Below are positions 2,074 to 64,000 of a stretch of DNA of 64,000 nucleotides, piece after piece (the first letter of the stretch is position 1; every line of letters begins with the position of its first letter). The DNA comes from Candidatus Palauibacter scopulicola (GTDB lineage Bacteria; Gemmatimonadota; Gemmatimonadetes; Palauibacterales; Palauibacteraceae). The notes under the pieces were generated by a model. It worked only from the letters and a program-made list of their open reading frames with translations. It searched no databases and was not told where the DNA came from. Both the position numbers and the translations under genes were made by a program. The stretch lies in assembly GCF_947581915.1 (NCBI RefSeq), contig NZ_CANPWG010000038.1, positions 89,429-153,428 of the forward strand. The letters run 5' to 3'.

Positions 2074-2204
2074 CGGTCCCGCTCCGACGCTTGACGGTCC
2101 CGCAGACCGCTTCTAGCTTGGTTCCGCTCGTACTCGGGCGCATCCGCGCCGGACGTGGCGAGTCAGCCGATCGATGAACCTTACCGCTTACCGGGAGGAC
2201 CACC

Positions 2205-2879
2205 TTGATAGCGTCCACACTCTGGTTGCAGGAGACACTGACGCTGGGTGAGGGTCAGTCGCTCAATCTGGTGGAGATCTGGGATGCCGGGGGTTGGATG
2301 ATGTGGCCGCTGGGGGCGGCGCTCGCCATTGGGATTCTCATCATCCTCTGGAAGCTCGTCGACCTGCAGTTGAAGGGCGGCAAGAACAAGACCGTTCTCC
2401 GGGAAGCCGACGAACAGATCGCCGCCGGCAACCTCGATGAAGCGCTCGAAGTCTGCACCGAGTCCGGCGCTCCGGCGGGGAACGTCCTCAGCGCGGGGCT
2501 CTCGCGCTACAACGAAGGGACCGACCGCGCGACGCAGGCGGTGGAGAACGCCGGCGCGATCGAAGTCGCGGGGCTCGAGAAGGGCCTCGTGTGGCTGGCG
2601 ACGCTGTCGAACGTCGCTCCGCTCCTCGGCTTCCTCGGGACCGTGATCGGGATGATCATGGCTTTCCAGGCCATCGAGATCGCGGGCGAGGTGGAAGCCA
2701 CGCTGGTCGCCGGCGGGATCAAGGTCGCGCTCATCACCACCGCCACGGGTCTCACGATCGCGATTCCGATCAACATCTTCCACAACTACTTCGTGACGAA
2801 GATCGACCGCCTCGTCATCGACATGGAAGAGAGTGCCCAGCGCCTCATCGACGCGCTGCACGCGCGCGCGGTCGGCTAG
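2205..2879 (+). CDS. MotA/TolQ/ExbB family proton-channel protein
   Basis: TTG start 7 nt after GGGAGGA. C-terminal TM region is typical of ExbB/TolQ (LGFLGTVIGMIMAF...ITTATGL). No ExbD/TolR partner adjacent. Confidence 0.75.
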   Translation: MIASTLWLQETLTLGEGQSLNLVEIWDAGGWMMWPLGAALAIGILIILWKLVDLQLKGGKNKTVLREADEQIAAGNLDEALEVCTESGAPAGNVLSAGLSRYNEGTDRATQAVENAGAIEVAGLEKGLVWLATLSNVAPLLGFLGTVIGMIMAFQAIEIAGEVEATLVAGGIKVALITTATGLTIAIPINIFHNYFVTKIDRLVIDMEESAQRLIDALHARAVG

Positions 2880-44738: not shown

Positions 44739-47414
44739 ATGGAACGAGACAGCCGAGAGACGTTCGGCTCACGCTTCGGGCTCGTGGCCACGATGATCGG
44801 CGTCGCCGTCGGTCTCGGGAACGTGTGGCGCTTCCCGTACATGGTCGGCGAGTTCGGCGGGGCTCCCTTCGTGGCCTTCTACGTCCTCGCCGTGGTGCTG
44901 ATCGGCGTTCCCGCGCTCATGGCGGAATGGACGCTGGGCCGGCACACCCGCCGCGGCCCGGTCGGCGCGTTCGAGTCGGCCGGTCTCCCCTTCGGCCGCG
45001 CCCTCGGCTGGATCTTCTTCGTCGGCGTCACCGCGGCCACCGGCTACTACTCGAACGCGCTCGGCTGGGTACTGTACCACGCCCTGGCCGGGCTGCTCTC
45101 CGGCGTCGGGATCGAGATCGCCGCCGCCGCGATCCTGCCCCCGGACGAGGGGTTTTCGCTGCGCTCCTTCCTCCTGCAGTGCGTCTGCACCGGCGCGGTG
45201 CTCCTCACCTGCGCCGCGGTGCTGCGGCGCGGCCTCCGGGGCGGGATCGAGAAGGCGAGCCGCTTCATCGTGCCGGCGCTCCTCGGCGGCCTCCTCATCC
45301 TCATCATCCGCTCGCTCACGCTGCCCGGCGCGGGCGAGGGCCTCCGCTGGTACCTCGGCGCCTTCGATCCCGGCGCGCTCACGCCGCCCGTCATGCTGGG
45401 GGCGCTGGGCCAGGCGATCTTCAGCCTCTCGCTGGGCGGCACGTTCATGGTCGTGTACGGCTCCTACCTGAACCGCGGCGACCCTCTGCGCGGCAACGCC
45501 GTCTTCACCGCGGGCGGCGACCTGTGCGCCGGACTCCTGGCGGGGCTCGCCATCTTCCCCGCCGTGTTCGCCTTCGGGCTCGAACCGGCGAGCGGTCCCG
45601 GTCTCCTCTTCGTCACGCTGCCCGACGTGTTCGGGCAGATCCCGGCCGGGGCCGTGTTCGGGACGCTCTTCTTCCTGGCGCTGTTCGGGGGCGCCTACCT
45701 GTCGGACGTGGCGGCGCTGGAGGTGCTGGTGGCCGGGGTCACCGACAACACCGGGATCGGGCGCTCGCGCGCCGTCACGCTGACGACCGTGGTCGTGTTC
45801 GCGTTTGCGCTGCCCCCGATGATCAACATGAACGTGTTCACGCCCTGGGATCTGACCTTCGGATCGGGTTTCCAGACGCTCGGCGCGCTGCTCTCGGTTG
45901 TCGCCGTGGGGTGGGCGCTGGACCGCTCCGAAGTGCTGCGGCAACTGGCGGCGGGCGAGGATGGGCCCCGCGGGCGGCGGGTGCCCACGCTCTGGCTCTA
46001 CTACTGGCTCCGCTTCGTCATCCCCGCCGCGATCCTCGCCGTCGGAGCCTGGTGGCTGCTGCGGGACGTGCTGGGCAATGCGGGCGCCGGCCCGCCGCCC
46101 GCTGCCCGGGCCACTCTGGCCATCGAGGAGGTCTCGGTCCTTCCGATGGATGGCGAGCGCGTGCTCGCCGGCGTGACGGTGCTCATCGGCGACGGCCGCG
46201 TGCTCGCCGTGAGTCCGTCGGCCGAAGCGGAGGTCCCGGACGGCGCCGAGCGGGTCGACGGCCGCGGCCGCTTCCTCATCCCGGGCCTCCACGACATGCA
46301 CGTCCACTTCGGGGAGGAGTCGGCGCTCGGGCGGTTCCTGGCCACCGGAGTCACCGGCGTGCGCATCCTGTCGGGCGGGCCGCACACGCTCGACTTTCGC
46401 GACCGCGTCCGGAGCGGCGCACTGGCCGGCCCGGACATCCACACGGCGGGGCCGATCATCGAGGGGTTGCCGCCGCCGGGGTTCGCCGCCGTCATCGACA
46501 CGGCGGGACGCGCGATCGTCCACGACAGCCTCGACGGCGCCCGCACTGTGCGGGAGCAGCATGCCGCCGGGTACGACTTCATCAAGGTGTACAACAACGT
46601 GCCCGCGGCGGCCTACCGGGGCGTCGTCGCCGAGGCGCGCGGGCTCGGGATCCCGGTGGCGGGACACGTGCCCTTCGAGGTGGGACTCGATGGCGTCCTC
46701 GCGGCGGGCCAGGCCAGCATCGAACACCTGCGCGGGTACATCTGGCACCTCGTGCCCGAGGAGGCGCCGGCCCAGCCCGGCCCTGATTTGCGGTCGCGCA
46801 CGCTCGCCTGGGCTCACGGAGATCCCGCGCGGATCGGAGCGCTCGCCGAGCGGACCCGCCGGGCCGGCTCGTGGAACGTGCCCACGCTCTCGGTCCGCAT
46901 GATTCACAAGCCGGACCGCCTCCTCGATGCGTACCTCGCCACGGAGGAGGCGTCGCACATGACCGCCGCCATGCGCCGCTTCTACACCGAGCGCATGTCG
47001 ATCCCCTGGATGAGCAACTTCTCGCCGGATGACTTCGAGGCCGCGCTGGATGGTTTCGCGGTGGCGGATTCCCTCATCCGCGCCCTCGTGGCCGCCGGCG
47101 CTCCCGTGATGGCCGGCACGGATACGCCGCCCCTCGGCTTCGCCCTCCATCGCGAACTGGAGGAACTCGTCGCGGCGGGTCTGTCACCGTACGAGGCGCT
47201 GCGGAGCGCCACGGTCAACCCGGCCCGCTTCCTCGGACGGGAGGGGGGCGCCGGCATGGTGGTCGACGGGAGCCCCGCCGACCTCGTGCTGCTGGAGGGC
47301 AATCCGCTGGAAGCGATCGGCAACACGCGCCGCATCGCCGGCGTCGCGAGGCGCGGCGAATGGCTCGACCGCGCGACACTGGACGCGATGCTGCGGGAGG
47401 CCGCAGGCCGCTGA
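44739..47414 (+). CDS. Fusion protein: N-terminal Na+-dependent NSS-family transporter plus C-terminal amidohydrolase domain
   Basis: NSS signature GLGNVWRFPY with about 12 TM helices. Extra hydrophobic segment (WLRFVIPAAILAVGAWWLL). C-terminal metal-dependent hydrolase domain (LIPGLHDMHVHF...AGTD). Confidence 0.75.
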   Translation: MERDSRETFGSRFGLVATMIGVAVGLGNVWRFPYMVGEFGGAPFVAFYVLAVVLIGVPALMAEWTLGRHTRRGPVGAFESAGLPFGRALGWIFFVGVTAATGYYSNALGWVLYHALAGLLSGVGIEIAAAAILPPDEGFSLRSFLLQCVCTGAVLLTCAAVLRRGLRGGIEKASRFIVPALLGGLLILIIRSLTLPGAGEGLRWYLGAFDPGALTPPVMLGALGQAIFSLSLGGTFMVVYGSYLNRGDPLRGNAVFTAGGDLCAGLLAGLAIFPAVFAFGLEPASGPGLLFVTLPDVFGQIPAGAVFGTLFFLALFGGAYLSDVAALEVLVAGVTDNTGIGRSRAVTLTTVVVFAFALPPMINMNVFTPWDLTFGSGFQTLGALLSVVAVGWALDRSEVLRQLAAGEDGPRGRRVPTLWLYYWLRFVIPAAILAVGAWWLLRDVLGNAGAGPPPAARATLAIEEVSVLPMDGERVLAGVTVLIGDGRVLAVSPSAEAEVPDGAERVDGRGRFLIPGLHDMHVHFGEESALGRFLATGVTGVRILSGGPHTLDFRDRVRSGALAGPDIHTAGPIIEGLPPPGFAAVIDTAGRAIVHDSLDGARTVREQHAAGYDFIKVYNNVPAAAYRGVVAEARGLGIPVAGHVPFEVGLDGVLAAGQASIEHLRGYIWHLVPEEAPAQPGPDLRSRTLAWAHGDPARIGALAERTRRAGSWNVPTLSVRMIHKPDRLLDAYLATEEASHMTAAMRRFYTERMSIPWMSNFSPDDFEAALDGFAVADSLIRALVAAGAPVMAGTDTPPLGFALHRELEELVAAGLSPYEALRSATVNPARFLGREGGAGMVVDGSPADLVLLEGNPLEAIGNTRRIAGVARRGEWLDRATLDAMLREAAGR

Positions 47415-50102: not shown

Positions 50103-52517
50103 ATGCACCCGAACGAACTGACGCCCGCACAGCAGGCCGCCGCGGAGGATCCGGATCGGCTCCCCGGGCTCGCCGACGCCGAGTTCACGGCGCTGGGCCG
50201 CCGCGCGCGCCGGGTCGAGGGGCTGCGCAAGTCGACCGGCCGCGAGATCTACACGGACGACATCGTCCTGCCGGGCATGCTGCACGGGAAGATCCTCCGC
50301 TCCACCGAGGCGCACGCGCGGATCGTCTCCATCGACACGTCCGAAGCCGAGGCCCTCGACGGCGTGTACGGCGTCATCACCGGACGGGACCTGCCGACGC
50401 CGTACGGGATCATCCCCTGGACGCGCGACGAGCACGCCCTCTGCTTCGACAAGGTGCGCTTCATCGGAGATGCGGTGGCTGCCGTGGCCGCGGTCGACGA
50501 GGACACGGCGAACGCGGCGCTCGGGCGCATCCACGTCGAGTACGAGCCGCTTCCCGTCTATCTCTCGCCCGAGGAGTCGCTGACGCCCGAGGCCGCCGCG
50601 GAGCCCATCCACGCGCCGCGCAAGCCGGGGGCGAACGGCAACGTCCTCAAGCACGTCCACCTCGAGTTCGGGGACGTGGACGCGCGGATGGCGGAAGCGG
50701 ACGTCACGATCGAGGGGGAGTACTTCTTCCACGGGACGACGCACACGCCGATCGAGCCGCACTGCGCGATCTCCCGCCTCAACCCGGATGGCGCCCTCGA
50801 GGTGTGGTCCTCGACGCAGGTCCCGCACTACCTGCAGCGCGAACTCGCGCGGGTGCTCGACCACGACGTGGCGAAGGTGCGGGTCGTACAGCCGGCCGTC
50901 GGCGGGGCCTTCGGCGGCAAGTCCGAGCCGTTCGATCTCGAGTTCTGCGTGGCGCTCCTCGCGATGCGCACGGGCCGTCCGGTGAAGATCCTCTACACGC
51001 GCGAGGAGCTTTTCTACTCGCACCGCGGCCGCCACCCCATGCACATGAAGTATCGGCTCGGCGCCTCGCGCGACGGGAAGCTCCGGGCGCTCGACGCGCA
51101 CACGACGCTGGACGGGGGCGCCTACGCCTCGTTCGGTCTCGTGACGACGTACTACTCGGGGCAGCTCCTCACCTCGCCCTGCCACATCGAGTCCTACCGC
51201 TTCGACTCGACCCGGGTCTACACGAACGTGGCCCCGTGCGGCCCCAAGCGCGGCCACGGCTCGGTACAGCCGCGCTTCGCGTACGAGATCTCGCTGGACA
51301 AGATGGCCGAGAAGCTCGGCCTCGACCCGTTCGAACTCCGCCGCCGCAACTTCATGGGCACGGGTCGGACGGTGAACGAGTTCAAGGTCCAATCCAACGG
51401 CTTCCTGGAGTGCCTCGAGGCGGTGGAACGCGCCAGCGACTGGAAGAAGCGCCACCGGCGGCTGCCGAGGGGTCGCGGTCTCGGGATGGCGGCCTCCTCG
51501 TACATCTCCGGCACGAACTACCCGATCTACCCGAACGCGATGCCCCAGGCGGCGGTGCAGGTGCAGATCGAGCGCTCCGGCCGGGTCGCGATCCTGCACG
51601 GCGCCTCGGAGATCGGGCAGGGGTCCGACTCCACGATGGCCTACATCGCGTGCGAGGAACTCGGCGTCCCGCTCGAATACGTGCGCGTCTTCTCCGCCGA
51701 CACGGACCTCACGCCGGTGGACCTGGGCGCCTACTCCTCGCGCGAGACCGTCATGGTGGGGAACGCCTGCGTCGAGGCCTGCCGTACGCTGCGCGCGCAG
51801 GTCGAGGAAGCCGTCGGGGAGCAGTGGGGCGTGCCGGCGCCGCGGGTCCGTCTGGCCCGCGGCTGGGCTTTCGACGCGGAGGCTCCCGAAGACGCCGGCC
51901 GCCGGATCCCGATCTCCGAGGCGTTCAACGTCGCCGAGACGAAGTTCGGACTGCTCGGCGCCGTCGGCTCCTACGACACGCCGAAGGATGTCCACGGCGA
52001 GTACCGCGGCGGCACGATCGGATCCTCGCCCGCCTACTCGTTCACCGCGCACGTGGCCGAAGTCGAGGTCGAGGAGGACACGGGCGTCGTCGGCGTGAAG
52101 AACATCTGGGTGGCGCACGACTGCGGCCGCGCGCTCAACCCGGTGCTCGTCGAAGGCCAGATCGAGGGCTCCGCCTACATGGGCTTCGCTGAGGCGATCT
52201 TCGAGGAGCAACTCTTCCGCGAAGGAGAGGTGGAGGGCGGCCTGCATACGTCGCCGTCGCTCCTCGACTACCGGATCCCCACCTCCATGGACTGCCCGGA
52301 GTTCGAGGCGCTCATCGTCGAGTCAGTGGATCCGGAAGGCCCGTACGGCGCCAAGGAGGCGGGCGAGGGGCCGCTGCACCCGTCGCTCCCGGCGATCGCG
52401 AACGCGATCCACGACGCGGTCGGCGTCCGCCTCGATGCGCTCCCCTTCACGCCGCAACGCGTGTGGAGAGCCCTGCGCGCCCACGCCGCCGGGGCCGCGC
52501 GCGAGGACGTCGCCTGA
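50103..52517 (+). CDS. Molybdopterin-binding large subunit of XDH-family oxidoreductase (orphan)
   Basis: 804 aa. Aldehyde-oxidase / XDH a/b hammerhead and Moco-binding domains (GGAFGGK, AGEGP). Confidence 0.8.
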   Translation: MHPNELTPAQQAAAEDPDRLPGLADAEFTALGRRARRVEGLRKSTGREIYTDDIVLPGMLHGKILRSTEAHARIVSIDTSEAEALDGVYGVITGRDLPTPYGIIPWTRDEHALCFDKVRFIGDAVAAVAAVDEDTANAALGRIHVEYEPLPVYLSPEESLTPEAAAEPIHAPRKPGANGNVLKHVHLEFGDVDARMAEADVTIEGEYFFHGTTHTPIEPHCAISRLNPDGALEVWSSTQVPHYLQRELARVLDHDVAKVRVVQPAVGGAFGGKSEPFDLEFCVALLAMRTGRPVKILYTREELFYSHRGRHPMHMKYRLGASRDGKLRALDAHTTLDGGAYASFGLVTTYYSGQLLTSPCHIESYRFDSTRVYTNVAPCGPKRGHGSVQPRFAYEISLDKMAEKLGLDPFELRRRNFMGTGRTVNEFKVQSNGFLECLEAVERASDWKKRHRRLPRGRGLGMAASSYISGTNYPIYPNAMPQAAVQVQIERSGRVAILHGASEIGQGSDSTMAYIACEELGVPLEYVRVFSADTDLTPVDLGAYSSRETVMVGNACVEACRTLRAQVEEAVGEQWGVPAPRVRLARGWAFDAEAPEDAGRRIPISEAFNVAETKFGLLGAVGSYDTPKDVHGEYRGGTIGSSPAYSFTAHVAEVEVEEDTGVVGVKNIWVAHDCGRALNPVLVEGQIEGSAYMGFAEAIFEEQLFREGEVEGGLHTSPSLLDYRIPTSMDCPEFEALIVESVDPEGPYGAKEAGEGPLHPSLPAIANAIHDAVGVRLDALPFTPQRVWRALRAHAAGAAREDVA

Positions 52518-52570
52518 CAGCCCATGGCGCAAGCCCCGCTGCGTTCGAGCGGCGAGCGCATCCCGCCGGA

Positions 52571-52990
52571 ATGAAGCAGTTCGTCCGACAACTCGGGGTC
52601 GAGACGCGGGGGAAGGGTCTGTACGAGATCACCGGCCCGATTCTCGAGTGGGTCGCCACCCTTGAGATCGAGACGGGCATGCTCACCGTCTACATCCGCC
52701 ACACGTCGGCGTCTCTGACGATCCAGGAGAACGCGGATCCGGACGTCCTCCACGACCTCTCGAACTTCTTCGCCCGCCTCGTTCCGGAGGGCGACCCCCG
52801 CTACCGGCACACGATGGAGGGGCCGGATGACATGCCGGCCCACATCCGGTCGGCCCTGACCCAGACGCACTTGGCCATCCCGGTGCTCGACGGAGCGCCG
52901 GCACTGGGTACCTGGCAGGGGATCTTCCTCTTCGAGCACCGCCGCCGCCCCCACCGGCGAACGGTCGTGCTGCACGCCGTCGGCGAATAG
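52571..52990 (+). CDS. YjbQ / UPF0047-family protein (secondary thiamine-phosphate synthase-like)
   Basis: LTVYIRHTSASLTIQENADPDV...VVLHAVGE matches the YjbQ family. Confidence 0.7.
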   Translation: MKQFVRQLGVETRGKGLYEITGPILEWVATLEIETGMLTVYIRHTSASLTIQENADPDVLHDLSNFFARLVPEGDPRYRHTMEGPDDMPAHIRSALTQTHLAIPVLDGAPALGTWQGIFLFEHRRRPHRRTVVLHAVGE

Positions 52991-52997
52991 GGAGTTC

Positions 52998-54206
52998 CTA
53001 GCGAAGGTGTGGCTCGAGCTGTCCGGTGGGGCCGTATCTGCCGATCGCTCCGAAGTCGAGACCAACGACAGATTCACCTGCGACCGAATCCTGCTCGAAG
53101 ACGATGAAGCCAAGTTCCGCAAGGCGCGTGAGTTCTCGAACGAAAGTCCTGGGAGTAACGACGCGATACACCGTGCGGACGAAGGGTGAATCCACCAGCT
53201 CGCGGAGCAACACTCGTCTGGAGGGGTCTTCCGAGAACGGGTCGATCGGCTCGGTTTCCTCAAGGAGAAAAACCAGAAGACCATGCTCCCGCTCGTTGAT
53301 GAGACGGCGACGTTTGCTGATTCGTTCTCCGAGCGCCCAAGTCAGCGTCGAACGATAGACCAAGCGATTCAGCTTCGACTTAATGAAGGAGTTGATCCCC
53401 TTCAACTCGGCGTCAAACCCCTGAAGCCCGAACTCCACGAAGGGATCCACGCTGACCGGTTGCTCCCTGCGGCATTCCTGCAGGCGCCTCTTGTAGAGGT
53501 CCCCGTTGCGGTAGAAGTAGTTCGAGAGCCCGTAGAAACCATGGACGTTGTATCCTCCTTCGAAGAGGATGGCTGCCTCGACCAGTCTCGACACACGTCC
53601 GTTGCCGTCTCCGAACGGATGGATGGTCGCCAGGAAGAAATGGGCAAGCAGCGCTCTGACCACCGGATGTTCATCCCGCACGCGCCGAGGATTAACGAAA
53701 GCCACGAAGCCGTCGAGCAGATTCGAGAGGTTCTCGTGAGGCGCCCCCAGGTGAACTCCCCCCAGTGCCGGCGTACCGACCTGCACGCCGTGTGCTCGCA
53801 AGCGGCCGGGAACGTTGTTGACCTCGTCGGACCCCCGCGTCATCAGCCTATGCATGTGGAGGATATCCGCAACGCTTAGCGGCGGCTTACCGGGCCCGAA
53901 TCTCTCGCGAACCCAGTCTTGGGCGGCGTTCGCATTCTCGACCTGAAGGGCTTCCTTTGTTGTCGAATCGGCACGCGTATCGCGTTCCAGCAGTTCACGC
54001 ACCTGAGCCTCCGACAGCGGGTTTCCCTCGAGGGCAGTCGTACCGCGAATGGTTCTGATGCGGTTCAGTCGGTCGAGTTGGTCCTTCCAGTCCGGCGGCA
54101 GCAGAAGATTCTCTACCGCCTTCTTGCTTGCCTCGATTTCTACCAGGAGGCTCTGCAGGTGCCGTCCGTCAAGGTGATATTCGAAGCTGAACTCTCGCCA
54201 ATCCAT
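52998..54206 (-). CDS. Fic-family protein (AMPylase) with N-terminal inhibitory motif
   Basis: Fic motif HPFGDGNGRVSR. TTALEGN matches the (S/T)xxxE(G/N) inhibitory helix. Confidence 0.8.
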   Translation of the reverse strand: MDWREFSFEYHLDGRHLQSLLVEIEASKKAVENLLLPPDWKDQLDRLNRIRTIRGTTALEGNPLSEAQVRELLERDTRADSTTKEALQVENANAAQDWVRERFGPGKPPLSVADILHMHRLMTRGSDEVNNVPGRLRAHGVQVGTPALGGVHLGAPHENLSNLLDGFVAFVNPRRVRDEHPVVRALLAHFFLATIHPFGDGNGRVSRLVEAAILFEGGYNVHGFYGLSNYFYRNGDLYKRRLQECRREQPVSVDPFVEFGLQGFDAELKGINSFIKSKLNRLVYRSTLTWALGERISKRRRLINEREHGLLVFLLEETEPIDPFSEDPSRRVLLRELVDSPFVRTVYRVVTPRTFVRELTRLAELGFIVFEQDSVAGESVVGLDFGAIGRYGPTGQLEPHLR

Positions 54207-54247
54207 AGGTCATGACACCTCATGTGACTTCTTATTTGACATCTTGT

Positions 54248-54275
54248 TTGACACGATAAGATACCATATTATAAC
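54248..54275 (+). promoter_or_regulatory. Near-consensus sigma70-type promoter (TTGACA-16-TATAAC) reading toward the M8 protease gene
   Basis: TTGACA at 54248-54253 and TATAAC at 54270-54275 inside an AT-rich island. A second TTGACA lies at 54236-54241. Confidence 0.35.
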
Positions 54276-54422
54276 TAGATACGCAGTTTATGGCAACAGC
54301 CACGACCACTTACATGACAGCTTGCATGACAAGATGCTTGTATGCTCGTCCGAACGCCCCTCCGCAATCTTGTTACCTTCGCTTGAGCCAACGGGAGGAT
54401 GAATGACCGATGTTGAAAGCGC

Positions 54423-55706
54423 TTGAGAGTGGAGGACGTTCGGGCCAGCCACGCGTGCGGGCGGGATAGTTCGGGCGCTCGGCTGCGCCGGACGGTTTCC
54501 GGAAGGCCCGGTTTCAGGGCGTTCGTGGTGCTGGTTGCCGCCTGGGCGGCGGCGTGCGGGGACGGGAGCACGGACCTTCCTCTGACGCACGCGCCGAGGG
54601 CCATCGGCGTGCTTCCCGACCTGGAACTTCCCCGGGGTGAGTCCGCGCTGGTGGAGGTGTCGGGCCTCTTCAGCGACGCGGACGGGGATGTGCTTTCCTA
54701 CGAGGTCCGGTCTTCGGCCCCCGGGGTGGTCGCGGCGGAGGTGTCGGGCGGCACGGTGCGGCTGGTCGCCCTGGCGCACGGGATGGCCACGGTGGCGATC
54801 ACGGCACGCGATCCCCAGGGCCGGGCCGCCGCCCTCCGCTTCGAGGTCACCGTACCGAACAGGTTCGACATCGAGGTCCGCTTCGACAGTACGGCTACCG
54901 AGCCGCGGCGGGCGGTAGTCCTCGCGGCGGCGGAACTCTGGATGTCGGTGCTGGCGGATACGGAGCTGCCGGAGGTGCCGGTCGATGACCGCATCGAATG
55001 TTACGGCGCGCACACGGCGGAACCGGTGGGGAGCGTCGATGACCTGATGATCCTCGTCGAGTTTCGGGACATCGACGGTCCGGGCCGCACGCTCGCCCAG
55101 GCCGGCGTGTGCCGCCTGCGCGAAGGGTCGATGCTGCCGTTCGCGAGCGTGGCGTTCTTCGACGTGTCGGACTTCGGCGGCCTCATCGACTCCGGCGACG
55201 CGACCGAACTCGCCGTTCACGAGATCGCGCACGCGCTCGGATTCGGCCTGCTGTGGCGCCCGCTCGGTCTACTCCGGGATCCTGCCCTCGGCGTGGGGGC
55301 GATCGACGCGCACTTCGTCGGTCCCGAGGCCGTCGCCGCCTTCGACGCGGCGGGCGGCACGGAGTACACCGGCGGGGCGAAGGTCCCGGTCGAGAACCTC
55401 GGCGGAGCCGGGAGCGCGAACCTCCATTGGCGGGGCGCCGTGCTGCGCGGGGAACTCATGAGGCCGCTCAACAGGATCGGAGTCCGGGAGACCCTGAGCG
55501 CGATCACGATCCGGTCGCTGGCCGATCTGGGTTACGTGGTCGACGCGAGCCTGGCGGAGCCGTACCTGCTCCCCGGCGTCGGCGCCGCGGACGAGGAACC
55601 CGGCCGCGTGGTCGATCTGGGCGACGATGTTCTCAGGGGTCCGGTGCAGGTCGTCGATGCGCAAGGACGCGTCGTGCGCGTGCTCCGCGACCGTTCGCCG
55701 GGGTAG
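54423..55706 (+). CDS. Leishmanolysin-like (M8) zinc metalloprotease lipoprotein with N-terminal Ig-like domain
   Basis: HEIAHALGFG (HExxH). Lipobox (LVAAWAAACG). TTG at 54423 or GTG at 54429; start uncertain. Confidence 0.6.
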   Translation: MRVEDVRASHACGRDSSGARLRRTVSGRPGFRAFVVLVAAWAAACGDGSTDLPLTHAPRAIGVLPDLELPRGESALVEVSGLFSDADGDVLSYEVRSSAPGVVAAEVSGGTVRLVALAHGMATVAITARDPQGRAAALRFEVTVPNRFDIEVRFDSTATEPRRAVVLAAAELWMSVLADTELPEVPVDDRIECYGAHTAEPVGSVDDLMILVEFRDIDGPGRTLAQAGVCRLREGSMLPFASVAFFDVSDFGGLIDSGDATELAVHEIAHALGFGLLWRPLGLLRDPALGVGAIDAHFVGPEAVAAFDAAGGTEYTGGAKVPVENLGGAGSANLHWRGAVLRGELMRPLNRIGVRETLSAITIRSLADLGYVVDASLAEPYLLPGVGAADEEPGRVVDLGDDVLRGPVQVVDAQGRVVRVLRDRSPG

Positions 55707-55783
55707 TCCATCCCGTTGACCGAATAAACCGTACATTCCTATGCTCAGGCCGGCGTCCCTCGACCTCCATGGGGTAAGGCACA

Positions 55784-57004
55784 ATGCTGCGCAGACTGCT
55801 GTTCGGATCCAGCCTCAGGATCATCGCCGTGATCACGGTCGGTACGATTGCGGTCGTGGCACTCATGCTCTCGCTGGCCCCCGAACCGGGAAGCCAGGAA
55901 CCGCCCCCCCAGATCCCGTTTGCGCAAACGGCCAACGTTGTGGCCGGATCGGGTGCCATACCCGTGTTCGGATCCGGCACCGTGCGGCCAAGCGAGGAGA
56001 TCGACGTCGCACCGCAGGTGGGCGGCAAGGTCGTCCGGGTGAGTCCGCGATTCCAGAGTGGAGGGCGCGTGGAGGCGGGCGAGACGCTCTTCCGCATCGA
56101 AGAAGCCGATTACGCCTACCGCGTGCAGGTAGCGGAAGCGAACGTCGCGGCCAGCCGCGTCGCCTTCCTCGAGGAACAGGAACGGGCAACGATCGCCAGC
56201 GCCCAGTATGAACTGTACGTGGAGCGGCGCGAGACGGGGCCTCCGCCGGCCGAGGCGAGTCCGCTCACGCTGAGGGAGCCTCAGCTGGAAGCGGCCAGCG
56301 CCGCGCTGAGCCGGGATCAGGCCCGGCTTGAGGAGGCGAAACTCGCGTTCTCCAGGACCCGGGTCACCGCGCCGTTCGATGGCTTCGTGCGCGAGGAATC
56401 CGTCGATGCGGGGCAGGTCGTGAACCCCGGGCAGCCCGTCGGACGCCTCTTCGCTTCGGGGGCGGTGGAGGTCGTCGTTCCCCTCTCCGACGCCGACGCC
56501 GCCCTGGTCCCCGGATTGTGGGGGCTTGAGGCGGGGGACGGGGCACGGGACGTAGCGGCTCGTGTGGTCGCCCACTACGGGGATGCCACGTACGCCTGGG
56601 AGGGCTACGTGGATCGGGGTGAGACTTCCGTTGACGCGCAGACACGCACCATCGACGTGATCGTGCGCGTGCCGGACCCGTTCGACCCAAGCGCGCCGGC
56701 GGGCCCGTCCGCCGCCGTCGGGGGCGATCCTCCGTTGCTGGTCGGCAAGTTCGTGGAGGTGGAGATCGAGGGAATCTCACCGGAGGACTACTTCCGGATC
56801 CCGCGAGCTGCGCTGCAACCCGGCAACGAAGTCTGGACGGTGGACGGCGACGGCGTCGTGAGCATCGTTCCGGTTCAGGTGCTGCAACGCGCCAACGATG
56901 CGGTGTTCGTCACCGGCGCCCTGCGGGGCGGCCAGGCGGTAGTCACCGGTGGACTTCAGTTCGCCACCGAAGGGATGCGCGTCCAGACCGACCCGGCGCG
57001 ATGA
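55784..57004 (+). CDS. Efflux RND transporter periplasmic adaptor subunit (HlyD/MFP family)
   Basis: N-terminal TM, coiled-coil, and beta-barrel/MP domains. Confidence 0.8.
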   Translation: MLRRLLFGSSLRIIAVITVGTIAVVALMLSLAPEPGSQEPPPQIPFAQTANVVAGSGAIPVFGSGTVRPSEEIDVAPQVGGKVVRVSPRFQSGGRVEAGETLFRIEEADYAYRVQVAEANVAASRVAFLEEQERATIASAQYELYVERRETGPPPAEASPLTLREPQLEAASAALSRDQARLEEAKLAFSRTRVTAPFDGFVREESVDAGQVVNPGQPVGRLFASGAVEVVVPLSDADAALVPGLWGLEAGDGARDVAARVVAHYGDATYAWEGYVDRGETSVDAQTRTIDVIVRVPDPFDPSAPAGPSAAVGGDPPLLVGKFVEVEIEGISPEDYFRIPRAALQPGNEVWTVDGDGVVSIVPVQVLQRANDAVFVTGALRGGQAVVTGGLQFATEGMRVQTDPAR

Positions 57005-60000
57005 ATCCCGACGCGGGTCCCGAGCCGGACGACCGCCGCGAGCGGTCCGGCCCGCTCGCCTACATGGCCAGCAACGGCATCGCGGCCAATCTCCTGATGA
57101 TGGGCATCGTCGCGGCCGGACTCGTGGCCCTGACCGGCCTCGAGCGGGAAGCCTGGCCCATCACCCCCTTCTACCACATCGAAGTCTCGATGGCCTATCC
57201 CGGCGCCACGCCGGAGGAGATCGAGGAGTCGATCGTCGTCAAGATCGAGGACCAGGTCAGCGGGCTCGATGACGTGAGGGCCGTCAAGTCCCTGGCGGCT
57301 CCGGGCATTGCCTCCGTGCGGATCCAGATGGATTCCCGTACGGACATGGATCGGGCCCTGGACGACATCGAATCTGCCGTCAATCGCATCCAGTCCTTCC
57401 CGGCCGGAGCCGAACGTCCGCGCTTCCAGGAGATGGACAACCGCTTCAGCATGATGCGGCTCATCGTCCACGGCGACGTCTCCGAGCGCTCGCTGAAGGA
57501 ACTGGCGCATCGGATCGAGGATGACCTCGCCGCGCTACCCTCCGTCTCCCAGGTCGAGGTCAGCGGGGTCCGGAACTACGAGATCTCCATCGAGGTATCG
57601 CTTCACCGCCTCAGAGCCCTGGGACTCTCCCTCACCGACGTTGCCGGGGCGATCCGCCGCAGTTCGCTCGACTTGTCGGCCGGCAGCATCGACACGCGGG
57701 AATCCCAGGTTCGGGTGCGGACCCTCGGGCAGAACTACGACCAGCAGGACTTCGAGGAGATCGTCCTTCTCAGCGGCCGCGACGGCACGGTCGTGCGCCT
57801 CGGCGACATTGCCGAGGTCCGCGACGGGTTCCAGGAGGCAGACCTGATCGTCCGCCATCAGGACCGGCCCGCCGTATTCGTCGAGGTCTATCGGGCCGGT
57901 GGCGAGCAGGTGATGGATGTGGCCACGACGGTTCGCGAGCACCTGGCGAACGAGGTGATCCCGGCCTTGCCGGACGGCGTGGGCATCACCCTGTGGAACG
58001 ACGAATCCCAGGCCTACGAGGAACGCGCCGATCTTCTTCTGAAGAACGGATTTCTGGGTTTGTTGCTGGTGCTGGTCGCACTGAGCCTGTTTTCTCCAGG
58101 TTCGGCTCGCCCTGTGGGTCGCCGTGGGCCTCGCCGTTTCGGGTGTAGGCGCGCTCGCCGCCATGATGGCATTCGACGTGGCGATCAACACCATCAGCCT
58201 CTTCTCCTTTGTCCTCGCCATTGGGATCGTCGTTGACGACGCCATCGTTGTGGCCGAGCACATTCAACACGAACGCAATCAGGGGACCCCGGGGGTCGCG
58301 GCCGCGATCCGGGGCGTCCGGCGGATCAAGGTGCCGTTGACGTTCGCGGTTCTCACTTCGGTGGTGGCCTTCGTCCCCTTGCTGTTCATCCCCGGCGGCG
58401 TCGGTGACGTATGGCGGGCTCTGCCGATCATCATGATCGCCATGCTGCTGTTTTCGCTGGTGGAATCGCTGTTCGTTCTGCCGAACCACCTGTCCCACCT
58501 GCCCGGTCCGGACTGGGTGCCGGCCAACGCGTTCGACCGATTCTTCTCGCGACTCCAGAGTCGTGTCGACGCCCAACTGCAGCGGTTCATCCAGGGGCCC
58601 CTGGACCGGGCCCTGCGGTTCGCCACGGCCCGGCCCGGGGTGACGATGACGGGGGCCGTTGCACTGCTCGTGCTGAGCATTTCCCTGCTGCCCGCGGGAA
58701 TCGTCCCCACCACGCTGGCCGACGACGTGGAGGGCGATATCGTGACGGTCGTGTTGGAGATGCCCGATGGGGCCACCGCTCCGCGAACGTACGAAGTCGC
58801 GCTGGAGCTGGAGGCCGCGGGCCACCGGGTCATCGAACAACTCTCTCGAAGCCGCCCCGCGGACGCGCCGCCGCTGCTGACCGGTGTCACCGTGACCGTC
58901 GGACTGGGATCGAGAATCGAGGGCGGACTCAACCCGCAGCCCACCCTCAATCCGCAGGCCAATATCGCCACCATCGAGTTCAAACTCCTCGGTGCGCAGC
59001 AGAGGCGGATCTCCACCGGAGACGTCGTGCAGGCGTGGCGGGAGGAGGTGGGTGTGCTGCCCTACGTCCGCGGCATCACCTTCAGCGGCGAGATCTTCAC
59101 CCTGGGGAACCCGGTCGAGGTCGTACTGTCACACCCGGACCCGGAGCGCCTCGCCGGGATCGCCGGCTCGGTGGTCGACGGACTCCGCAGCGTGAGGGGC
59201 GTCTACGACATACGGTCGGATCACGCCCCGGGCATCCCGGAGGTTCAGCTCGAGTTGCGGCCCGAAGCGCGCACGCTCGGTCTCACCGTGCAGGAGTTGG
59301 CGGGACAGGCGAGGGCCGCGTTCTTCGGCGCGGAAGCCGTCCGGGTGCAGCGCGGCCGGGAAGAGGTACGAGTCTACGTCCGGCTGCCCGCCGAAGAGCG
59401 AAACTCGATTACCGATATCGAGGGCTACCTGCTCCGGACGCCGGGCGGGGACGAGGTGCCGATGGTCAGTGTGGCGTCGCTGATCCCGGGCGTATCGCCC
59501 TCGGCCCTCCGGCGCAGGGATGGCCAGCGCGTCGTCACCGTCACCGCCGATGTGGACGCCTCGGTGATTTCCGGCGACGAAGCCAACGAGATCCTGGCCG
59601 GTTCGATCCTCGCGGACCTGGCCGCGGCGTACCCGGGCCTGACATACACGTTCGGGGGCGAGCAGCAGCAGCAGCTGGAGTCCATCGACGCGCTGTACCG
59701 CGGTTTCGCGGTCGCGCTGATCCTGATTTTCGCGCTCCTCGCCATCCCCCTCCGTTCATACACCAAGCCGTTCATCATCATGGCCGTCATCCCCTTCGGG
59801 TTCATCGGCGTGATCCTGGGCCACTGGATCCTGGGAGTAGCCCTGAGCGCCGTCTCCTTCATGGGGATCTTCGGTCTGAGCGGCGTGGTGGTGAACGATT
59901 CCCTGGTCATGATCGATTTCATCGATCAGAAACTCCGGGAAGGCGTCCCGCCGAGAACCGCGATCATGGAGGGGGCAAAGGGGCGTTTTCGTCCGATCAT

Positions 60001-60208
60001 GCTCACTTCCCTGACCACGTTCCTCGGCTTCACGCCCCTGATCCTCGAGCGCGCGATCCAGGCCCAGTTCCTGATACCGTTTGCCGCTTCGCTCGGTTGC
60101 GGCATTCTCTTCATAACGGCCATACTTATGATGGTGGTTCCGGCGCTATGCACTCTACATCTGCGCTTGATGCCGTCGCGGCGTCCTTCGATTCCGAGCG
60201 CCGCATAG
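57001..60208 (+). CDS. RND efflux permease (AcrB/CzcA family), interrupted by a +1 frameshift at 58090-58093
   Basis: Two adjacent ORFs (57001-58236 and 58124-60208) together align with one RND permease. The frame changes within a T4 run (LVALSLF | LQVRLALWVAV). Confidence 0.75.
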
Positions 60209-60242
60209 TGCACGTCGACCGCGGCGAGGCGAGAACCGACAA

Positions 60243-62270
60243 ATGACGGTGCAGAGTCTGAAGGTCGAATCCCTGAGCCTCGTCGACGAACTCATCCTGA
60301 TGCTTCTCGACGAGAAGGGAGGCTACTTCCATCAGGTCCCCGGCTGGCAGCTGAACTGCGCCGTGGTCGGCGGGGTGCTGGCGGAACTCTCCTTCCGGTC
60401 GCGGCTCGACTCGGACCTGACATCCCTGTACGTGGTGGACCGGGCCGAGACGGGCGATCCCGTCCTGGATCCCATCCTGAAGGAGATTGCGGACGAACCG
60501 GTCCAACACACGGCCCGGTACTGGGTCGAACGGCTCGCCCCCCGCGCCGAATCGGTTGTCGACCTGACCCTGGATCGCCTGGTTGAACGGGGGATCCTCC
60601 AACACCACGAGGGCGAATTCTGGACGCTGGCTCCCCCCGTCATGCATCGGCAGCAGTACGGGATGTTCGAGGAAGACGCGACTGACCAGTTCATCAAGGC
60701 GCGCATCGGCAACGTCATCTTCGCCGACGAGGTTCCCGAACCGAGAGACGCCGTCATCGTGTGCCTCGTCAACACCTGCGATGTGTTTCGCCTGATCTTC
60801 GAACTCGATGAAGCGGCGGAGGAGCGCATCAAGTGGATCTGTCAGTTGGACCTGATCGGCCGGTCCATCGCCGCTGTGGTCTCCGAGAACCTCGTCGGTC
60901 CGATCCGGAGACATACTGCTCTCGCCAAGAAGATTCCGACGGTTCCGCTGACCAGGCTGATGCGCAACCCGCATGTTCGCGACGGCAACCTGAACGCGCT
61001 CTTCGGCAGTCTCGCGGAGGAGTACGGCCCGGTGTTCCAGATCCGCCCGCCCTTCTCGAAGCGCATGATCTTCCTGGCCGGACTCGAGACGAATGAATGG
61101 ATGCAAAAGCGCGGGCGCATGTACCTGAGGACCAGGGACTACTTCGCCGACTTCGAGAAGGTCTACGGCGCGGCCGGCGTTCTGCCCGCTCTGGACGGGG
61201 CCGACCACTTCCGGCTTCGCAAGTTCCTGTCGCCGGCCTATTCCCGCACGAGACTTGCAGGGCAGCTGGACGACCTCTACGGCAGGGGGCGCGCGTACAT
61301 GTCGACCCTGACGGTCGGGGACTCCTACCGCGCCACGTCCATGGGCCGGGCCATGGTGAACGCCCAGCTGTCGCCGCTGTTCATCGGCGTCGACACGCAG
61401 GATCTCATGGACGACCTGATGGTCTACAAGGAGCGGGCCCTCAGCGTGCACATCGCCAGGATCCTGCCCAGGTTCACGCTGCATACCCCGGGCATGAGGC
61501 GTCGGGCGGCCGTCCTGGACACGCTGATGAAGCGGATCTTGAGCGTCCATACTCCCGCCCAACGCGTGGACAGCCCGCGGAACCTGGTGGACGACTATCT
61601 CAGCCTGCATGCCAGCGACCCGCAGTTTCTCCCGGAGTCCAACCTGCTCTTCGCTTTTTCCGCGGCTCTGATTGCCAGCGTGTACCTCGGCGACACGTTC
61701 AGCCTCGCAGTCTACGCCATGGTATCGCAGCCGGCGCTCTACGAGAGGATCCGCGCCGAAGCGGATGCGCTGTTTGCCAACGGTGACCCCGAAAAAGAGG
61801 ATTTCACCCCCGCCAACATCGACGTGACGCATCGCTTCCTCATGGAGTGCATGCGCATGTACCCGATCGTGTCCATGTCCGTTCGGAACGTGATGAATAC
61901 CTGCACGGTCGAGAACTACGAGTTGCCCCTGGGGGAACGGGTCCACATCGCCATGACCGCCACGCATTACATGAGCGACATCTTTCCCGAACCCCACAGG
62001 TTCGACATCGACCGCTTCCTGCCGTCGCGTCGTGAGCATCACAGTCTCGGGTTCGCCCCGTACGGGCTGGGTACGCACAAATGTCTCGGCACCCGCTGGA
62101 TGGAGATGCACCTGGCGGCCAACCTGTTGATGCTGGCGCACTATTTCACGATCGAGGTGTCGCCGGCGAAATACGCCCGGAAGCTCCGCTTCAATCCGCT
62201 TCCATCGCTGAAGCCGAGCAAGAAGGTCAGGTTCCGCATCGCCGAGCAGAGGCGGGAGCTGCCCGCCTGA
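60243..62270 (+). CDS. Fusion protein: N-terminal GPP34 (GOLPH3/Vps74-like) domain plus C-terminal cytochrome P450
   Basis: N-terminal LSLVDELILMLLDEKGG is typical of the GPP34 family. C-terminal P450 signatures: ExxR (ECMRMYP), PxRF (PEPHRF), heme loop FAPYGLGTHKCLG. Confidence 0.75.
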   Translation: MTVQSLKVESLSLVDELILMLLDEKGGYFHQVPGWQLNCAVVGGVLAELSFRSRLDSDLTSLYVVDRAETGDPVLDPILKEIADEPVQHTARYWVERLAPRAESVVDLTLDRLVERGILQHHEGEFWTLAPPVMHRQQYGMFEEDATDQFIKARIGNVIFADEVPEPRDAVIVCLVNTCDVFRLIFELDEAAEERIKWICQLDLIGRSIAAVVSENLVGPIRRHTALAKKIPTVPLTRLMRNPHVRDGNLNALFGSLAEEYGPVFQIRPPFSKRMIFLAGLETNEWMQKRGRMYLRTRDYFADFEKVYGAAGVLPALDGADHFRLRKFLSPAYSRTRLAGQLDDLYGRGRAYMSTLTVGDSYRATSMGRAMVNAQLSPLFIGVDTQDLMDDLMVYKERALSVHIARILPRFTLHTPGMRRRAAVLDTLMKRILSVHTPAQRVDSPRNLVDDYLSLHASDPQFLPESNLLFAFSAALIASVYLGDTFSLAVYAMVSQPALYERIRAEADALFANGDPEKEDFTPANIDVTHRFLMECMRMYPIVSMSVRNVMNTCTVENYELPLGERVHIAMTATHYMSDIFPEPHRFDIDRFLPSRREHHSLGFAPYGLGTHKCLGTRWMEMHLAANLLMLAHYFTIEVSPAKYARKLRFNPLPSLKPSKKVRFRIAEQRRELPA

Positions 62271-62281
62271 GCCCCCCCACA

Positions 62282-63313
62282 ATGCGACTCGGCAAACTGT
62301 CGAAAGCGCTGAGAGCTGCGCACGCGGGATCGGGCGTCGCGCGTCGAGTCCGGCACCTCGAAGGCTGGCTTGATCGAGCGGCATCGGAGGCTGCGGGCGC
62401 GGGCACCTACGACCACGCGGAAACGGTCAGGGACTACTACGAGCTGTGCAACGGCTTCATGGTGTACGGCTGGGGCGAATCCCTGCACTTCGCGCCCCTC
62501 ACGCCCAGTGAAAGCCTGGAGGAGTCCAAGCTCCGGCACCAGCGGGCGATGATCTCCATGTTGGAGCTGCAACAGGGCATGGAGGTGATCGACGTCGGGT
62601 GTGGAATCGGCGGCCCCATGCGCCGAGTCGTCCGCGAGGCGGGTGTCAGGGTCGTGGGCATCAACATCAATGAGATCCAGCTGGGGGAGGCGAAGAAGCT
62701 GAACGCCGAGGCGGGGCTGGAGCACATGACCGATTTCAGGAAGCGCAGCTTCGAGGACATGAGCGCCATCGAGGACGACACCTTCGACGCGGGTTACGCG
62801 ATCGAGTCGACGTGCCATGCGCAGGACAAGCAACGCGCGTTCGCGGAGGTATTCCGCGTACTGAAGCCGGGCGCCCTGTTCTGGGGCCAGGAAATGTGCC
62901 TGACGGACCGGTTCGATCCGCGGGACGGCCGGCACCGGACCATCAAGCGGGAGCTCATGCGCGGTATCGCGCTGCACGACATCGCCACGTTCGGAGAAGT
63001 GAATCGCGCTCTCGAAGGGGCGGGATTCCAGGTCATCGAGGGGAGTGACTGGGAGGTCCGGGAAGGACCCGCTACGCCCTGGTATCAACCCATGGAGAGT
63101 CGGCACGGGACGTTGGGGAACGCGGTGCGCAGGCTCCCCTGGGGCCGCAAGGCGTTCATCGCGGGGTCGAAGTTGGCCGAGGTGCTGCGGTTCTTTCCGA
63201 AGGGCTCGGCGGAGGTGGTTCGACTCCTTGACCGAACCGCGGAGGCTTACGTCGCAGGCGGCAAGACGGGCATCTTCACGCCCCTGTATTGTTTCCTGGC
63301 GCGCAAGCCCTAG
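62282..63313 (+). CDS. SAM-dependent methyltransferase of the sterol 24-C-methyltransferase (ERG6/SMT) family
   Basis: SMT region I YYELCNGFMVYGWGESLHFA. SAM motif I VIDVGCGIGGP. Sterol_MT_C-like C-terminal region. Confidence 0.7.
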   Translation: MRLGKLSKALRAAHAGSGVARRVRHLEGWLDRAASEAAGAGTYDHAETVRDYYELCNGFMVYGWGESLHFAPLTPSESLEESKLRHQRAMISMLELQQGMEVIDVGCGIGGPMRRVVREAGVRVVGININEIQLGEAKKLNAEAGLEHMTDFRKRSFEDMSAIEDDTFDAGYAIESTCHAQDKQRAFAEVFRVLKPGALFWGQEMCLTDRFDPRDGRHRTIKRELMRGIALHDIATFGEVNRALEGAGFQVIEGSDWEVREGPATPWYQPMESRHGTLGNAVRRLPWGRKAFIAGSKLAEVLRFFPKGSAEVVRLLDRTAEAYVAGGKTGIFTPLYCFLARKP

Positions 63314-63999
63314 TCGGCGCTGCGGTCAGGGCTTCGAGGCGCCATCGCCGGGTCCGGATAGAACTGTCGGCAGTGTCGGCGGTACTTCCCGATGGGGCCG
63401 TCCGTCCGGCAAAGCCGCGGGGGAGACCGGTAGCGCTTCCTGTCCCAGATCACGATGTCCTGCAGGACGAACCGCCTCTCCTCGCGGAGGATGAAGTAAT
63501 TCAGCACCCGGTGGCGCAGCGGCACGGGCAGGAAGCCCAGGCCCGAGATGAACCGCCCCGGTTTCCGGATCTCCCGCACCTGATTGACCATCGTCAACTC
63601 CACGAATTCGCCGTCGACGGGCGTCGTAAGCACCCACATGCGCGACCTTATGCCGACCGACTTCTCGTGAATCTCGACGAAGGAGTAGCCGAGTCCGTGG
63701 ACGTGCGTGATGACCGAGACTTCGGAATGAATGTCCACCAGACCCAGGATCCGGCGCACCGCCTTGAAGTCGAAACAACTCTTCAGGTAGGCGCCGTCGA
63801 CGGAAAAGTCGGTCGGCTCCACGTCGTGGTAGCCATGTGTGTACTCGAGGTGCTCCACGTCCACGGAGTTTTCCGTCGTCTCCTGGGGATGGCCTCGAAA
63901 CCGCAGCTTGCAGGATCGGAGCCCGGTCCACTGGGCGCCGGTGGGTGGTTCGTCCGGCAGGTGCCACTGGGGGGCTCGGCCGCCGCTCCCCCACCAGGC
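63310..63999 (-). CDS. Rieske-type non-heme iron oxygenase, catalytic domain (partial; N-terminal Rieske domain lies beyond the window edge)
   Basis: Frame open to the window end. Mononuclear-iron motif ENSVDVEHLEYTH (E-N-x2-D-x2-H-x4-H). C-terminal LQDIVIWDRK resembles the oxygenase QDxxI motif. Confidence 0.55.
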   Translation of the reverse strand, partial: AWWGSGGRAPQWHLPDEPPTGAQWTGLRSCKLRFRGHPQETTENSVDVEHLEYTHGYHDVEPTDFSVDGAYLKSCFDFKAVRRILGLVDIHSEVSVITHVHGLGYSFVEIHEKSVGIRSRMWVLTTPVDGEFVELTMVNQVREIRKPGRFISGLGFLPVPLRHRVLNYFILREERRFVLQDIVIWDRKRYRSPPRLCRTDGPIGKYRRHCRQFYPDPAMAPRSPDRSAD

Positions 64000-64000
64000 G

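Follow-up and report, generated by a model that had tools for sequence, protein, structure and literature searches.

A divergent sterol methyltransferase homologue in a putative sterol-tailoring gene cassette of Candidatus Palauibacter scopulicola

The 64,000-nucleotide stretch of Candidatus Palauibacter scopulicola DNA analysed here (contig NZ_CANPWG010000038.1, positions 89,429 to 153,428; the window) encodes near its right end a protein of the sterol C-methyltransferase (SMT) family, the family of yeast ERG6. As judged from its sequence, the protein is a member of a distinct paralogous subfamily, called type 2 here, that is symbiont-restricted and has an altered sterol-binding motif. Our preferred reading, to which we give a probability of roughly 0.55, is that by analogy with its relatives it is an active S-adenosylmethionine (SAM)-dependent C-methyltransferase for a sterol other than desmosterol or 24-methylenecholesterol, and that it acts within a sterol-tailoring cassette that is mobile and specific to symbionts. 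As no more than a bacterial homologue of ERG6, the protein would no longer be new. What is added is a separate SMT subfamily of symbionts, an orthologue in it that is apparently inactive on the standard substrates, and a mobile cassette with a GPP34-cytochrome P450 fusion gene. The gene and its recognizable parts are as follows:

62282..63313, + strand: SMT-family methyltransferase of the divergent type 2 clade (343 amino acids; ATG at 62282, stop codon at 63311-63313)
62435..62500, + strand: Region I (residues 52-73, YYELCNGFMVYGWGESLHFAPL; in ERG6 numbering T78 = N57, D79 = G58, Y81 = M60, E82 = V61, F89 = L68 and H90 = H69)
62585..62617, + strand: SAM-binding Region II, VIDVGCGIGGP (residues 102-112; D104, G106, G108, G111 and P112 correspond to ERG6 D125, G127, G129, G132 and P133)
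63128..63310, + strand: Sterol_MT_C domain (residues 283-343; Pfam score 57.3 bits, cut-off 21.7)

The protein belongs to the SMT/ERG6 family, with a match far beyond chance. It is identical to WP_310778251.1 / MDE2662834.1 of Candidatus P. scopulicola, a sponge-associated member of the Gemmatimonadota, and the start at 62282 is shared by public gene calls on three independent contigs that encode the identical protein; the stop of the preceding P450 gene (62270) lies 11 nucleotides before this start. In BLASTP it aligns with yeast ERG6 over 326 positions with 113 identities (35%, E = 1e-64), collinearly from Region I to the C-terminus. The ERG6 reference is exactly NP_013706.1, and its numbering agrees with all residue numbers quoted in the literature. 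Like ERG6, the protein combines a class I methyltransferase core (Methyltransf_11, 64.5 bits in Pfam) with a Sterol_MT_C domain, on which ERG6 and a bacterial canonical SMT, used as controls, score 97 and 67 bits. Regions II to IV are retained, including Region III (YAIE.TCHA) and G217 of Region IV, together with the GWG..HF core of Region I. Previously, H90, D125, G129, P133 and E195 were found to be essential in yeast ERG6 (preprint 10.64898/2025.12.19.695621), and all five are present here, as H69, D104, G108, P112 and E175. The SAM motif and the SMT-like C-terminal domain reported in the first-pass annotation of this DNA are both there, the former letter for letter, and the alignment with yeast ERG6 that it proposed shows the essential residues kept and Region I positions changed. 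Unlike ERG6, the protein is bacterial, is encoded in an operon-like cassette, is 40 residues shorter and carries Y81M, E82V, F89L, T78N, D79G, G218A, T219L, Y223Q, E246M, D249I and L362C.

CMAS (PF02353), which shares the class I methyltransferase core and the olefin-methylating chemistry but is without Sterol_MT_C, was considered as a better family and rejected. The first-pass annotation had named a better match to such lipid methyltransferases, together with loss of the conserved acidic sterol-binding residues, as what would speak against an SMT. The CMAS score (60.7 bits, a partial match to profile positions 7-196 of 273) is indeed slightly above that of Sterol_MT_C, but ERG6 itself matches CMAS with 52 bits, so the higher score leaves SMT membership standing. 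The NCBIfam models for cyclopropane fatty acid and mycolic acid enzymes reach only 37-51 bits against cut-offs of 390-650, and Sterol_MT_C is present. As to the acidic residues, E82 is lost from Region I, which does touch the second half of that argument, and E195, D125, D189 and D276 are kept. A search of solved structures with the protein sequence returned only generic methyltransferases (e.g., MitM) and no SMT, and an AlphaFold2 model based on a shallow alignment (75-89% identity) was not used, as its mean predicted local distance difference test score was 62, with values below 50 over residues 258-331.

What sets the type 2 proteins apart is the pocket. Residue counts were made on an alignment of 119 homologues at least 75% identical, to which ERG6 and the canonical SMT of a Nitrospirales sterol cluster were added. 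Y81M, F89L and L362C occur in all 119 homologues, Y223Q in 118, and E82V and D249I in 117 each; T78S/N, D79G, T219L and E246M are further pocket changes of the type 2 proteins. The SAM-binding and catalytic positions D125, G127, G129, P133, H90, E195, G217, W286, G333, G352, F357 and P359 are invariant in the same sequences, and G132 is present in 97/119. In published models with a docked sterol, the residues at positions 81 and 249 flank its side chain. Region I of the window protein reads F-M-V-Y-G-W-G-E-S-L-H-F, compared with the canonical (F)Y81-E82-[YFW]-G-W-G-x-S-F89-H-F. The string that the first-pass annotation pointed to as the SMT-specific Region I is therefore exactly where it should be, but it is not the canonical motif, with Y81M, E82V and F89L and with T78 and D79 also replaced. 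Likewise, its description of an ERG6-type sterol C-methyltransferase homologue holds for the family and fails for the canonical type, given the separate clade and the altered Region I. Twenty-five residues, T78 and F89 among them, are conserved in all experimentally functional SMTs (Brown and Welander 2025 preprint), and the window SMT retains 23 of these, with N in place of T78 and L in place of F89.

A search of 1.84 billion cluster representatives gave 244 homologous proteins with E < 1e-30. Only about ten of the best 150 cluster representatives carry the M81/L89 signature, and the rest have the canonical FYE[YFW]GWGxSFHF. Among 106 SMT representatives with a readable motif, M at position 81 is confined to nine type 2 sequences, and L89 to those nine and one intermediate (P0173). 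The signature-bearing sequences form a single clade in a neighbour-joining tree (bootstrap 100/100 for the type 2 clade including the intermediate), and the midpoint root falls between this clade and all other SMTs. One metagenome sequence with a type 2 SMT (P0078, on a 24-kb contig) is called as a protein of 477 amino acids in which the last 133 residues of a KshA_C Rieske protein stand in frame with the SMT. This apparent SMT-Rieske fusion seems to result from read-through out of the end of a preceding Rieske gene and may be a gene-call artefact, and it was not used as evidence. Bacterial SMTs that form 24-isopropyl side chains need Gly249 with Phe81 and/or Phe83 (Brown and Welander 2025 preprint). 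The window SMT has I229 at position 249, M60 at 81 and Y62 at 83; because of the residues at 249 and 81, it is not predicted to form 24-isopropyl sterols.

A member of this clade appears to have been assayed already. Brown et al. (2023, PMC10070321) found 7,966 SMT homologues in metagenomes, and our scan of one genome per species gave 574 related stretches, so the first-pass view that bacterial SMTs are few is outdated. In the published study, 24 metagenomic SMTs were assayed and 20 of them alkylated desmosterol and/or 24-methylenecholesterol. Several of the gene clusters have two SMTs, of which those labelled "1 of 2" are 39-42% and those labelled "2 of 2" 34.5-35.6% identical to ERG6. The functional "1 of 2" proteins keep the canonical Region I (YYDLATDFYEFGWGQSFHF), whereas the window protein falls in the other clade. 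Our locus L063 is the 70,077-bp Porites lutea Nitrospirales scaffold used in that work. The SMT at L063:10001-11035 is 76% identical to the window protein, has S78, M81, V82 and L89, and is 35.632% identical to ERG6, compared with a published value of 35.63 for IMG 2682229270 ("Nitrospira sp., coral reef 2 of 2"), which was tested on desmosterol and 24-methylenecholesterol. This protein is of the same clade as the window SMT and differs from it by its phylum and by its place inside a complete sterol cluster. Since every functional SMT has T78 and F89 (Brown and Welander 2025 preprint) and this protein has replaced both, it would not be among the functional enzymes. We infer from this that IMG 2682229270 was inactive on both substrates. 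The reported counts of inactive SMTs, 2/10 for symbiont and 2/14 for environmental enzymes (one of the latter the Beatty hot-spring SMT), fit this. The desmosterol assay suggested in the first-pass annotation would then in effect have been done, on a 76%-identical orthologue and with a negative outcome. The Aplysina aerophoba and Theonella-Chromatiales "2 of 2" homologues are probably type 2 as well.

Such inactivity could also be explained if the protein were a canonical C-24 SMT like ERG6 or plant SMT1 whose orthologues only seemed inactive, because they require another sterol nucleus (that of lanosterol, cycloartenol, zymosterol or a further pathway intermediate) or were poorly expressed in E. 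coli lysates. The retained family domains and yeast-essential residues would agree with this, the authors of the assays themselves mention that inactive SMTs may need other substrates, and eukaryotic SMTs prefer particular nuclei (PMC5711494). Nevertheless, we consider it unlikely, as the near-universal Region I positions 81, 82 and 89 differ in the type 2 clade and these differences are fixed. The genomic context also argues against it, as full sterol clusters already hold a canonical SMT, which would make a second one redundant, and the type 2 gene mostly travels with oxygenases and not with an oxidosqualene cyclase (OSC) or CYP51.

This context was examined in the best 80 of the 574 related stretches, within 10 kb of the SMT gene. 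The SMTs in these 80 are 74-99% identical and come from at least eight phyla: Gemmatimonadota, Acidobacteriota, Latescibacterota, Nitrospirota, Nitrospinota, Chloroflexota, Bacteroidota (Rhodothermales) and Actinomycetota. A KshA-like Rieske oxygenase gene is found near the SMT gene in 70/80, a gene for the GPP34-P450 fusion in 65/80, a resistance-nodulation-division (RND) permease gene in 46/80 and a gene for an amine-oxidase-like flavoprotein in 38/80. Core sterol-synthesis genes are present in 5-9 of the 80, mostly Nitrospirota. Isolate names often match sample codes of reef sponges (RHO, IRC, COS), the bins include Palauibacter irciniicola and P. rhopaloidicola, and the "Plut" metagenome-assembled genomes (MAGs) include the scaffold labelled "coral reef" by Brown et al. 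Palauibacter (group PAUC43f) has been detected in many sponge species, and one of its genera is mostly host associated in corals and sponges.

In the Nitrospirota with core sterol-synthesis genes, the cassette lies inside a complete cluster that encodes a fusion of squalene epoxidase and OSC (SE-OSC), a CYP51-like P450, ERG24, SdmA, SdmB, a canonical SMT, the flavoprotein, the Rieske protein, the type 2 SMT and the GPP34-P450. The type 2 orthologues of the sponge and coral Nitrospirales are 76-78% identical to the window SMT. The canonical SMT of the same clusters (L004:6786-7862 and L063:4636-5670), also from a sponge or coral symbiont and of the same family, is 41% identical to the window protein. 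Because this canonical enzyme sits in the same full sterol cluster, the type 2 enzyme is probably a non-redundant second SMT in the Nitrospirales. The flavoprotein (about 460 amino acids, resembling amine oxidases and protoporphyrinogen oxidases) is 77-90% identical across phyla and is encoded between the SMT and Rieske genes, as in L004 and L063; it is absent from the window. The SE-OSC fusion (L004:2226-5621) and 120 homologues of about 1,130 amino acids, 72-99% identical, occur in many MAGs. Among the few named carriers are Nitrospira, Acidimicrobiia, Rhodospirillales and Gammaproteobacteria, and a metagenome of the sponge Petrosia ficiformis contributed one cluster member. These fusions appear to be shared between phyla, as the SMT cassette is. 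There are no Gemmatimonadota names among the 120 SE-OSC proteins closest to that of Nitrospira (72-99% identical). Clusters of ERG24, CYP51 and LSS have been described in Ircinia-associated Gemmatimonadetes MAGs (PMC9531527). In one sponge Gemmatimonadota MAG (L012) we found a gene for an ERG4/ERG24-family sterol reductase (133 bits) and one for a short-chain dehydrogenase/reductase directly upstream of the cassette, at 1350-2489 (- strand) and 3250-4305 (+ strand). On the closed Palauibacter chromosome (L007), two GPP34-P450 paralogues flank the cassette.

Sponge and coral symbionts of many phyla share the cassette, which is mobile between them. Between phyla, the SMT gene has a nucleotide identity of 78-90%, with dS of 0.17-0.95 and dN/dS of 0.14-0.23. 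The window gene is 90% identical in nucleotides to the copy of an acidobacterium and 86% to that of a member of the Rhodothermales, and the G+C content of the cassette is 0.655, compared with 0.707 in the rest of the window. Together, these values indicate recent transfer of a functional gene set between phyla. The low dN/dS values show purifying selection on the SMT gene and speak against a catalytically dead or decaying paralogue, which we consider highly improbable. Such decay could be read from the apparent inactivity of the tested orthologues, from the change of two of the 25 residues of functional SMTs and from the frameshift in the neighbouring RND gene of the window. However, 119 or more sequences from at least eight phyla all share the SAM motif and the catalytic residues, and the gene has been kept through repeated horizontal transfer.

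In the window, the cassette genes are arranged as follows:

55716..55745, + strand: match to a sigma-70-like promoter, TTGACC-18-TATGCT, upstream of the string from membrane-fusion protein to SMT (weak evidence)
55784..57004, + strand: membrane-fusion protein of the HlyD type, the stop codon overlapping the RND start
57001..60208, + strand: RND (AcrB-type) permease, split into open reading frames (ORFs) 57001-58236 and 58124-60208 by a 1-nucleotide insertion in a T run at about 58088-58092
60243..62270, + strand: fusion of a GPP34 (GOLPH3-like) N-terminal domain and a cytochrome P450 (675 amino acids; Pfam GPP34 104 bits, p450 117 bits)
63310..64000, - strand: Rieske [2Fe-2S] / KshA_C oxygenase, C-terminal part of about 230 codons, convergent with the SMT gene and overlapping its stop codon

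The genes for the membrane-fusion protein, the RND permease, the GPP34-P450 and the SMT thus follow each other on the + strand, each overlapping the next or separated from it by 11-34 nucleotides, and the convergent Rieske gene comes after them. The full Rieske gene encodes 347 amino acids and runs to about 64353, past the end of the window. The best solved-structure sequence matches of the P450 are CYP51s (E = 1e-18), and those of the Rieske protein are KshA 3-ketosteroid 9-alpha-hydroxylases. By sequence, the partner enzymes resemble steroid enzymes most, which favours a sterol as the substrate class. SdmA was tried as an identity for the Rieske protein and rejected, as it scores 34 bits on NF052579, for which the cut-off is 600, and has a catalytic domain of the KshA_C and not the VanA_C type; the true SdmA in L063 scores 415 bits on this model and has a VanA_C domain. 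The frameshift in the RND gene consists of one extra T (CTGTTTTCTCC compared with CTG-TTTCTCC in the intact, about 95%-identical homologue in L010). The same split is present in gene calls on two public assemblies; either the gene is a true pseudogene or the extra T is an error in the homopolymer run. Genes for OSC, squalene epoxidase, CYP51, ERG24 and a canonical SMT were looked for in the window and the 10 kb after it, and none was found. The tblastn queries were the Nitrospirales SE-OSC, CYP51-like protein, ERG24, canonical SMT, flavoprotein and desaturase, and the only matches were the SMT and the GPP34-P450 genes themselves.

The fusion protein encoded at 60243-62270 has the exact architecture of GPP34_L, here from a Gemmatimonadota symbiont and physically coupled to a type 2 SMT. 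GPP34_L (GPP34 plus P450) was described in 2025 as a monophyletic group of 656 proteins that is exclusive to sponge symbionts (PMC11706023). Among symbiotic genomes, 92.6% of those of Gemmatimonadota and 85.7% of those of Nitrospirota encode it, and free-living relatives lack it. The paper contains neither "sterol" nor "methyltransferase" and restricted its analysis of neighbouring genes to the short form of GPP34 in Actinobacteriota, and our literature search combining GPP34, P450, sterol and bacteria found no paper. For these two reasons, the coupling of GPP34_L to a type 2 SMT and to the Nitrospirales sterol cluster appears to be undescribed in the searchable literature. The same paper reports rare fusions of GPP34 with a Rieske domain, which fit the Rieske partner in the cassette.

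We propose the following for the function of the type 2 SMT. By analogy with ERG6, SAM would be held by Region II (D104, G106, G108 and P112), and its methyl group would go to an olefinic carbon in a sterol or a lipid resembling a steroid. The resulting carbocation may be resolved through deprotonation by His69 (ERG6 H90), with Glu175 (E195) taking part in sterol binding. The rebuilt pocket (Y81M, E82V, F89L, T219L, Y223Q, E246M, D249I and L362C) suggests that the preferred substrate is neither desmosterol nor 24-methylenecholesterol. Probably it is a sterol that is first modified by the GPP34-P450, the KshA-like Rieske protein and, in many genomes, the amine-oxidase-like flavoprotein. This sterol might be made by the bacterium itself or be supplied by the host. 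The membrane-fusion protein and RND pump could plausibly carry substrate or product across the cell envelope, for which the RND sterol transporter BstA of Methylococcus is a precedent (PMC10942540).

Several points weigh against this proposal. T78 and F89, conserved in every functional SMT, are both replaced. The only tested type 2 orthologues appear to have been inactive on the two standard substrates. There is no OSC, squalene epoxidase, CYP51 or canonical SMT gene within 10 kb here and in most genomes outside the Nitrospirales, and the RND gene is frameshifted in the window. Moreover, GPP34_L has been proposed to bind phosphatidylinositol 4-phosphate (PI4P) and to block phagosome maturation, an evasion of phagocytosis and not sterol chemistry (PMC11706023). 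In another view of the cassette, the SMT would act on a non-sterol lipid (a linear triterpene such as squalene, a carotenoid, a hopanoid or a membrane lipid of the host), or the cassette would be a PI4P-related host-interaction system without any sterol. SMT-family enzymes were recruited to the methylation of squalene and botryococcene in Botryococcus. In 70 or more of the best 80 genomes there are no sterol-core genes near the cassette, the flavoprotein often encoded nearby belongs to the amine-oxidase / protoporphyrinogen-oxidase type, and GPP34, the domain of the proposed symbiosis factor (PMC11706023), binds PI4P in eukaryotes. We nevertheless hold a non-sterol role to be quite unlikely, because Sterol_MT_C and the sterol-binding E195 are kept, the cassette is embedded in the Nitrospirales sterol cluster, the partners resemble CYP51 and KshA, and an ERG4/ERG24 reductase gene adjoins the cassette in L012.

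An active type 2 SMT on a tailored sterol would be of interest for the sterol chemistry of sponges. Side-chain-alkylated steranes such as 24-isopropylcholestane and 26-methylstigmastane serve as the earliest chemical record of animals, and whether their precursors are of sponge or bacterial origin is still open (PMC10070321, PMC12541326). The enzymes of unconventional sterol alkylation in sponges remain unidentified (Brown et al. 2023, PMC10070321; a 2025 PNAS paper), and the type 2 SMT is a defined, testable candidate for the unexplained sterol chemistry of the sponge holobiont. That the type 2 SMT with the GPP34-P450, the Rieske protein and the flavoprotein would be the missing set for this alkylation is a very doubtful proposition at present. 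The alkylation could be that of a 26-SMT which uses delta-25(27) sterols such as (epi)codisterol and yields aplysterol or 26-methylstigmastane-type side chains, or it could be at another position, and the evidence is neutral on the position. Aplysterol, a 26-methyl sterol, is the main sterol of A. aerophoba. If it were true, a source of the precursor of a "sponge" biomarker would be horizontally shared genes of bacterial symbionts, and the GPP34-P450 "symbiosis factor" would have to be recast as a sterol-modifying enzyme. In any case, the cassette offers a sterol-based biochemical alternative to the PI4P/phagocytosis hypothesis for GPP34-P450. It consists of four to six concrete genes, in which a type 2 SMT is coupled to the symbiont-exclusive GPP34-P450 and a steroid-type Rieske protein, and these can be expressed and assayed.

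Some observations concern the surroundings of the cassette. Just past the right end of the window, after the Rieske gene, lies a gene for a GH116 glycosidase of 868 amino acids (L001:12176-14782). A GH116 gene follows the Rieske gene in 11/29 Gemmatimonadota loci (also L007, L008-L010, L016 and L026). The GH116 family includes the glucosylceramidase GBA2, which is also active on steryl glucosides, and a link of the glycosidase to steryl glycosides is speculative. On the other side, a Fic-domain protein (52998-54206, - strand) and a leishmanolysin-like Peptidase_M8 protein (54423-55706, + strand; a weak match) are encoded beside the cassette. This pair, both of a type associated with eukaryote interaction, is conserved in the Palauibacter locus L007. 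The G+C content drops from about 0.71 (positions 1-52000) to 0.63-0.66 over the Fic, M8-peptidase and cassette region (52000-64000), which points to a horizontally acquired island. Elsewhere the window holds ordinary chromosomal genes, among them those for PolA, PriA, transporters and hydrolases, and Pfam searches on 20 other large ORFs gave housekeeping functions only. At 44739-47414 (+ strand) there is an ORF of 891 amino acids with a sodium:neurotransmitter symporter (SNF) domain and a C-terminal amidohydrolase domain, an unusual fusion if the ORF is real.

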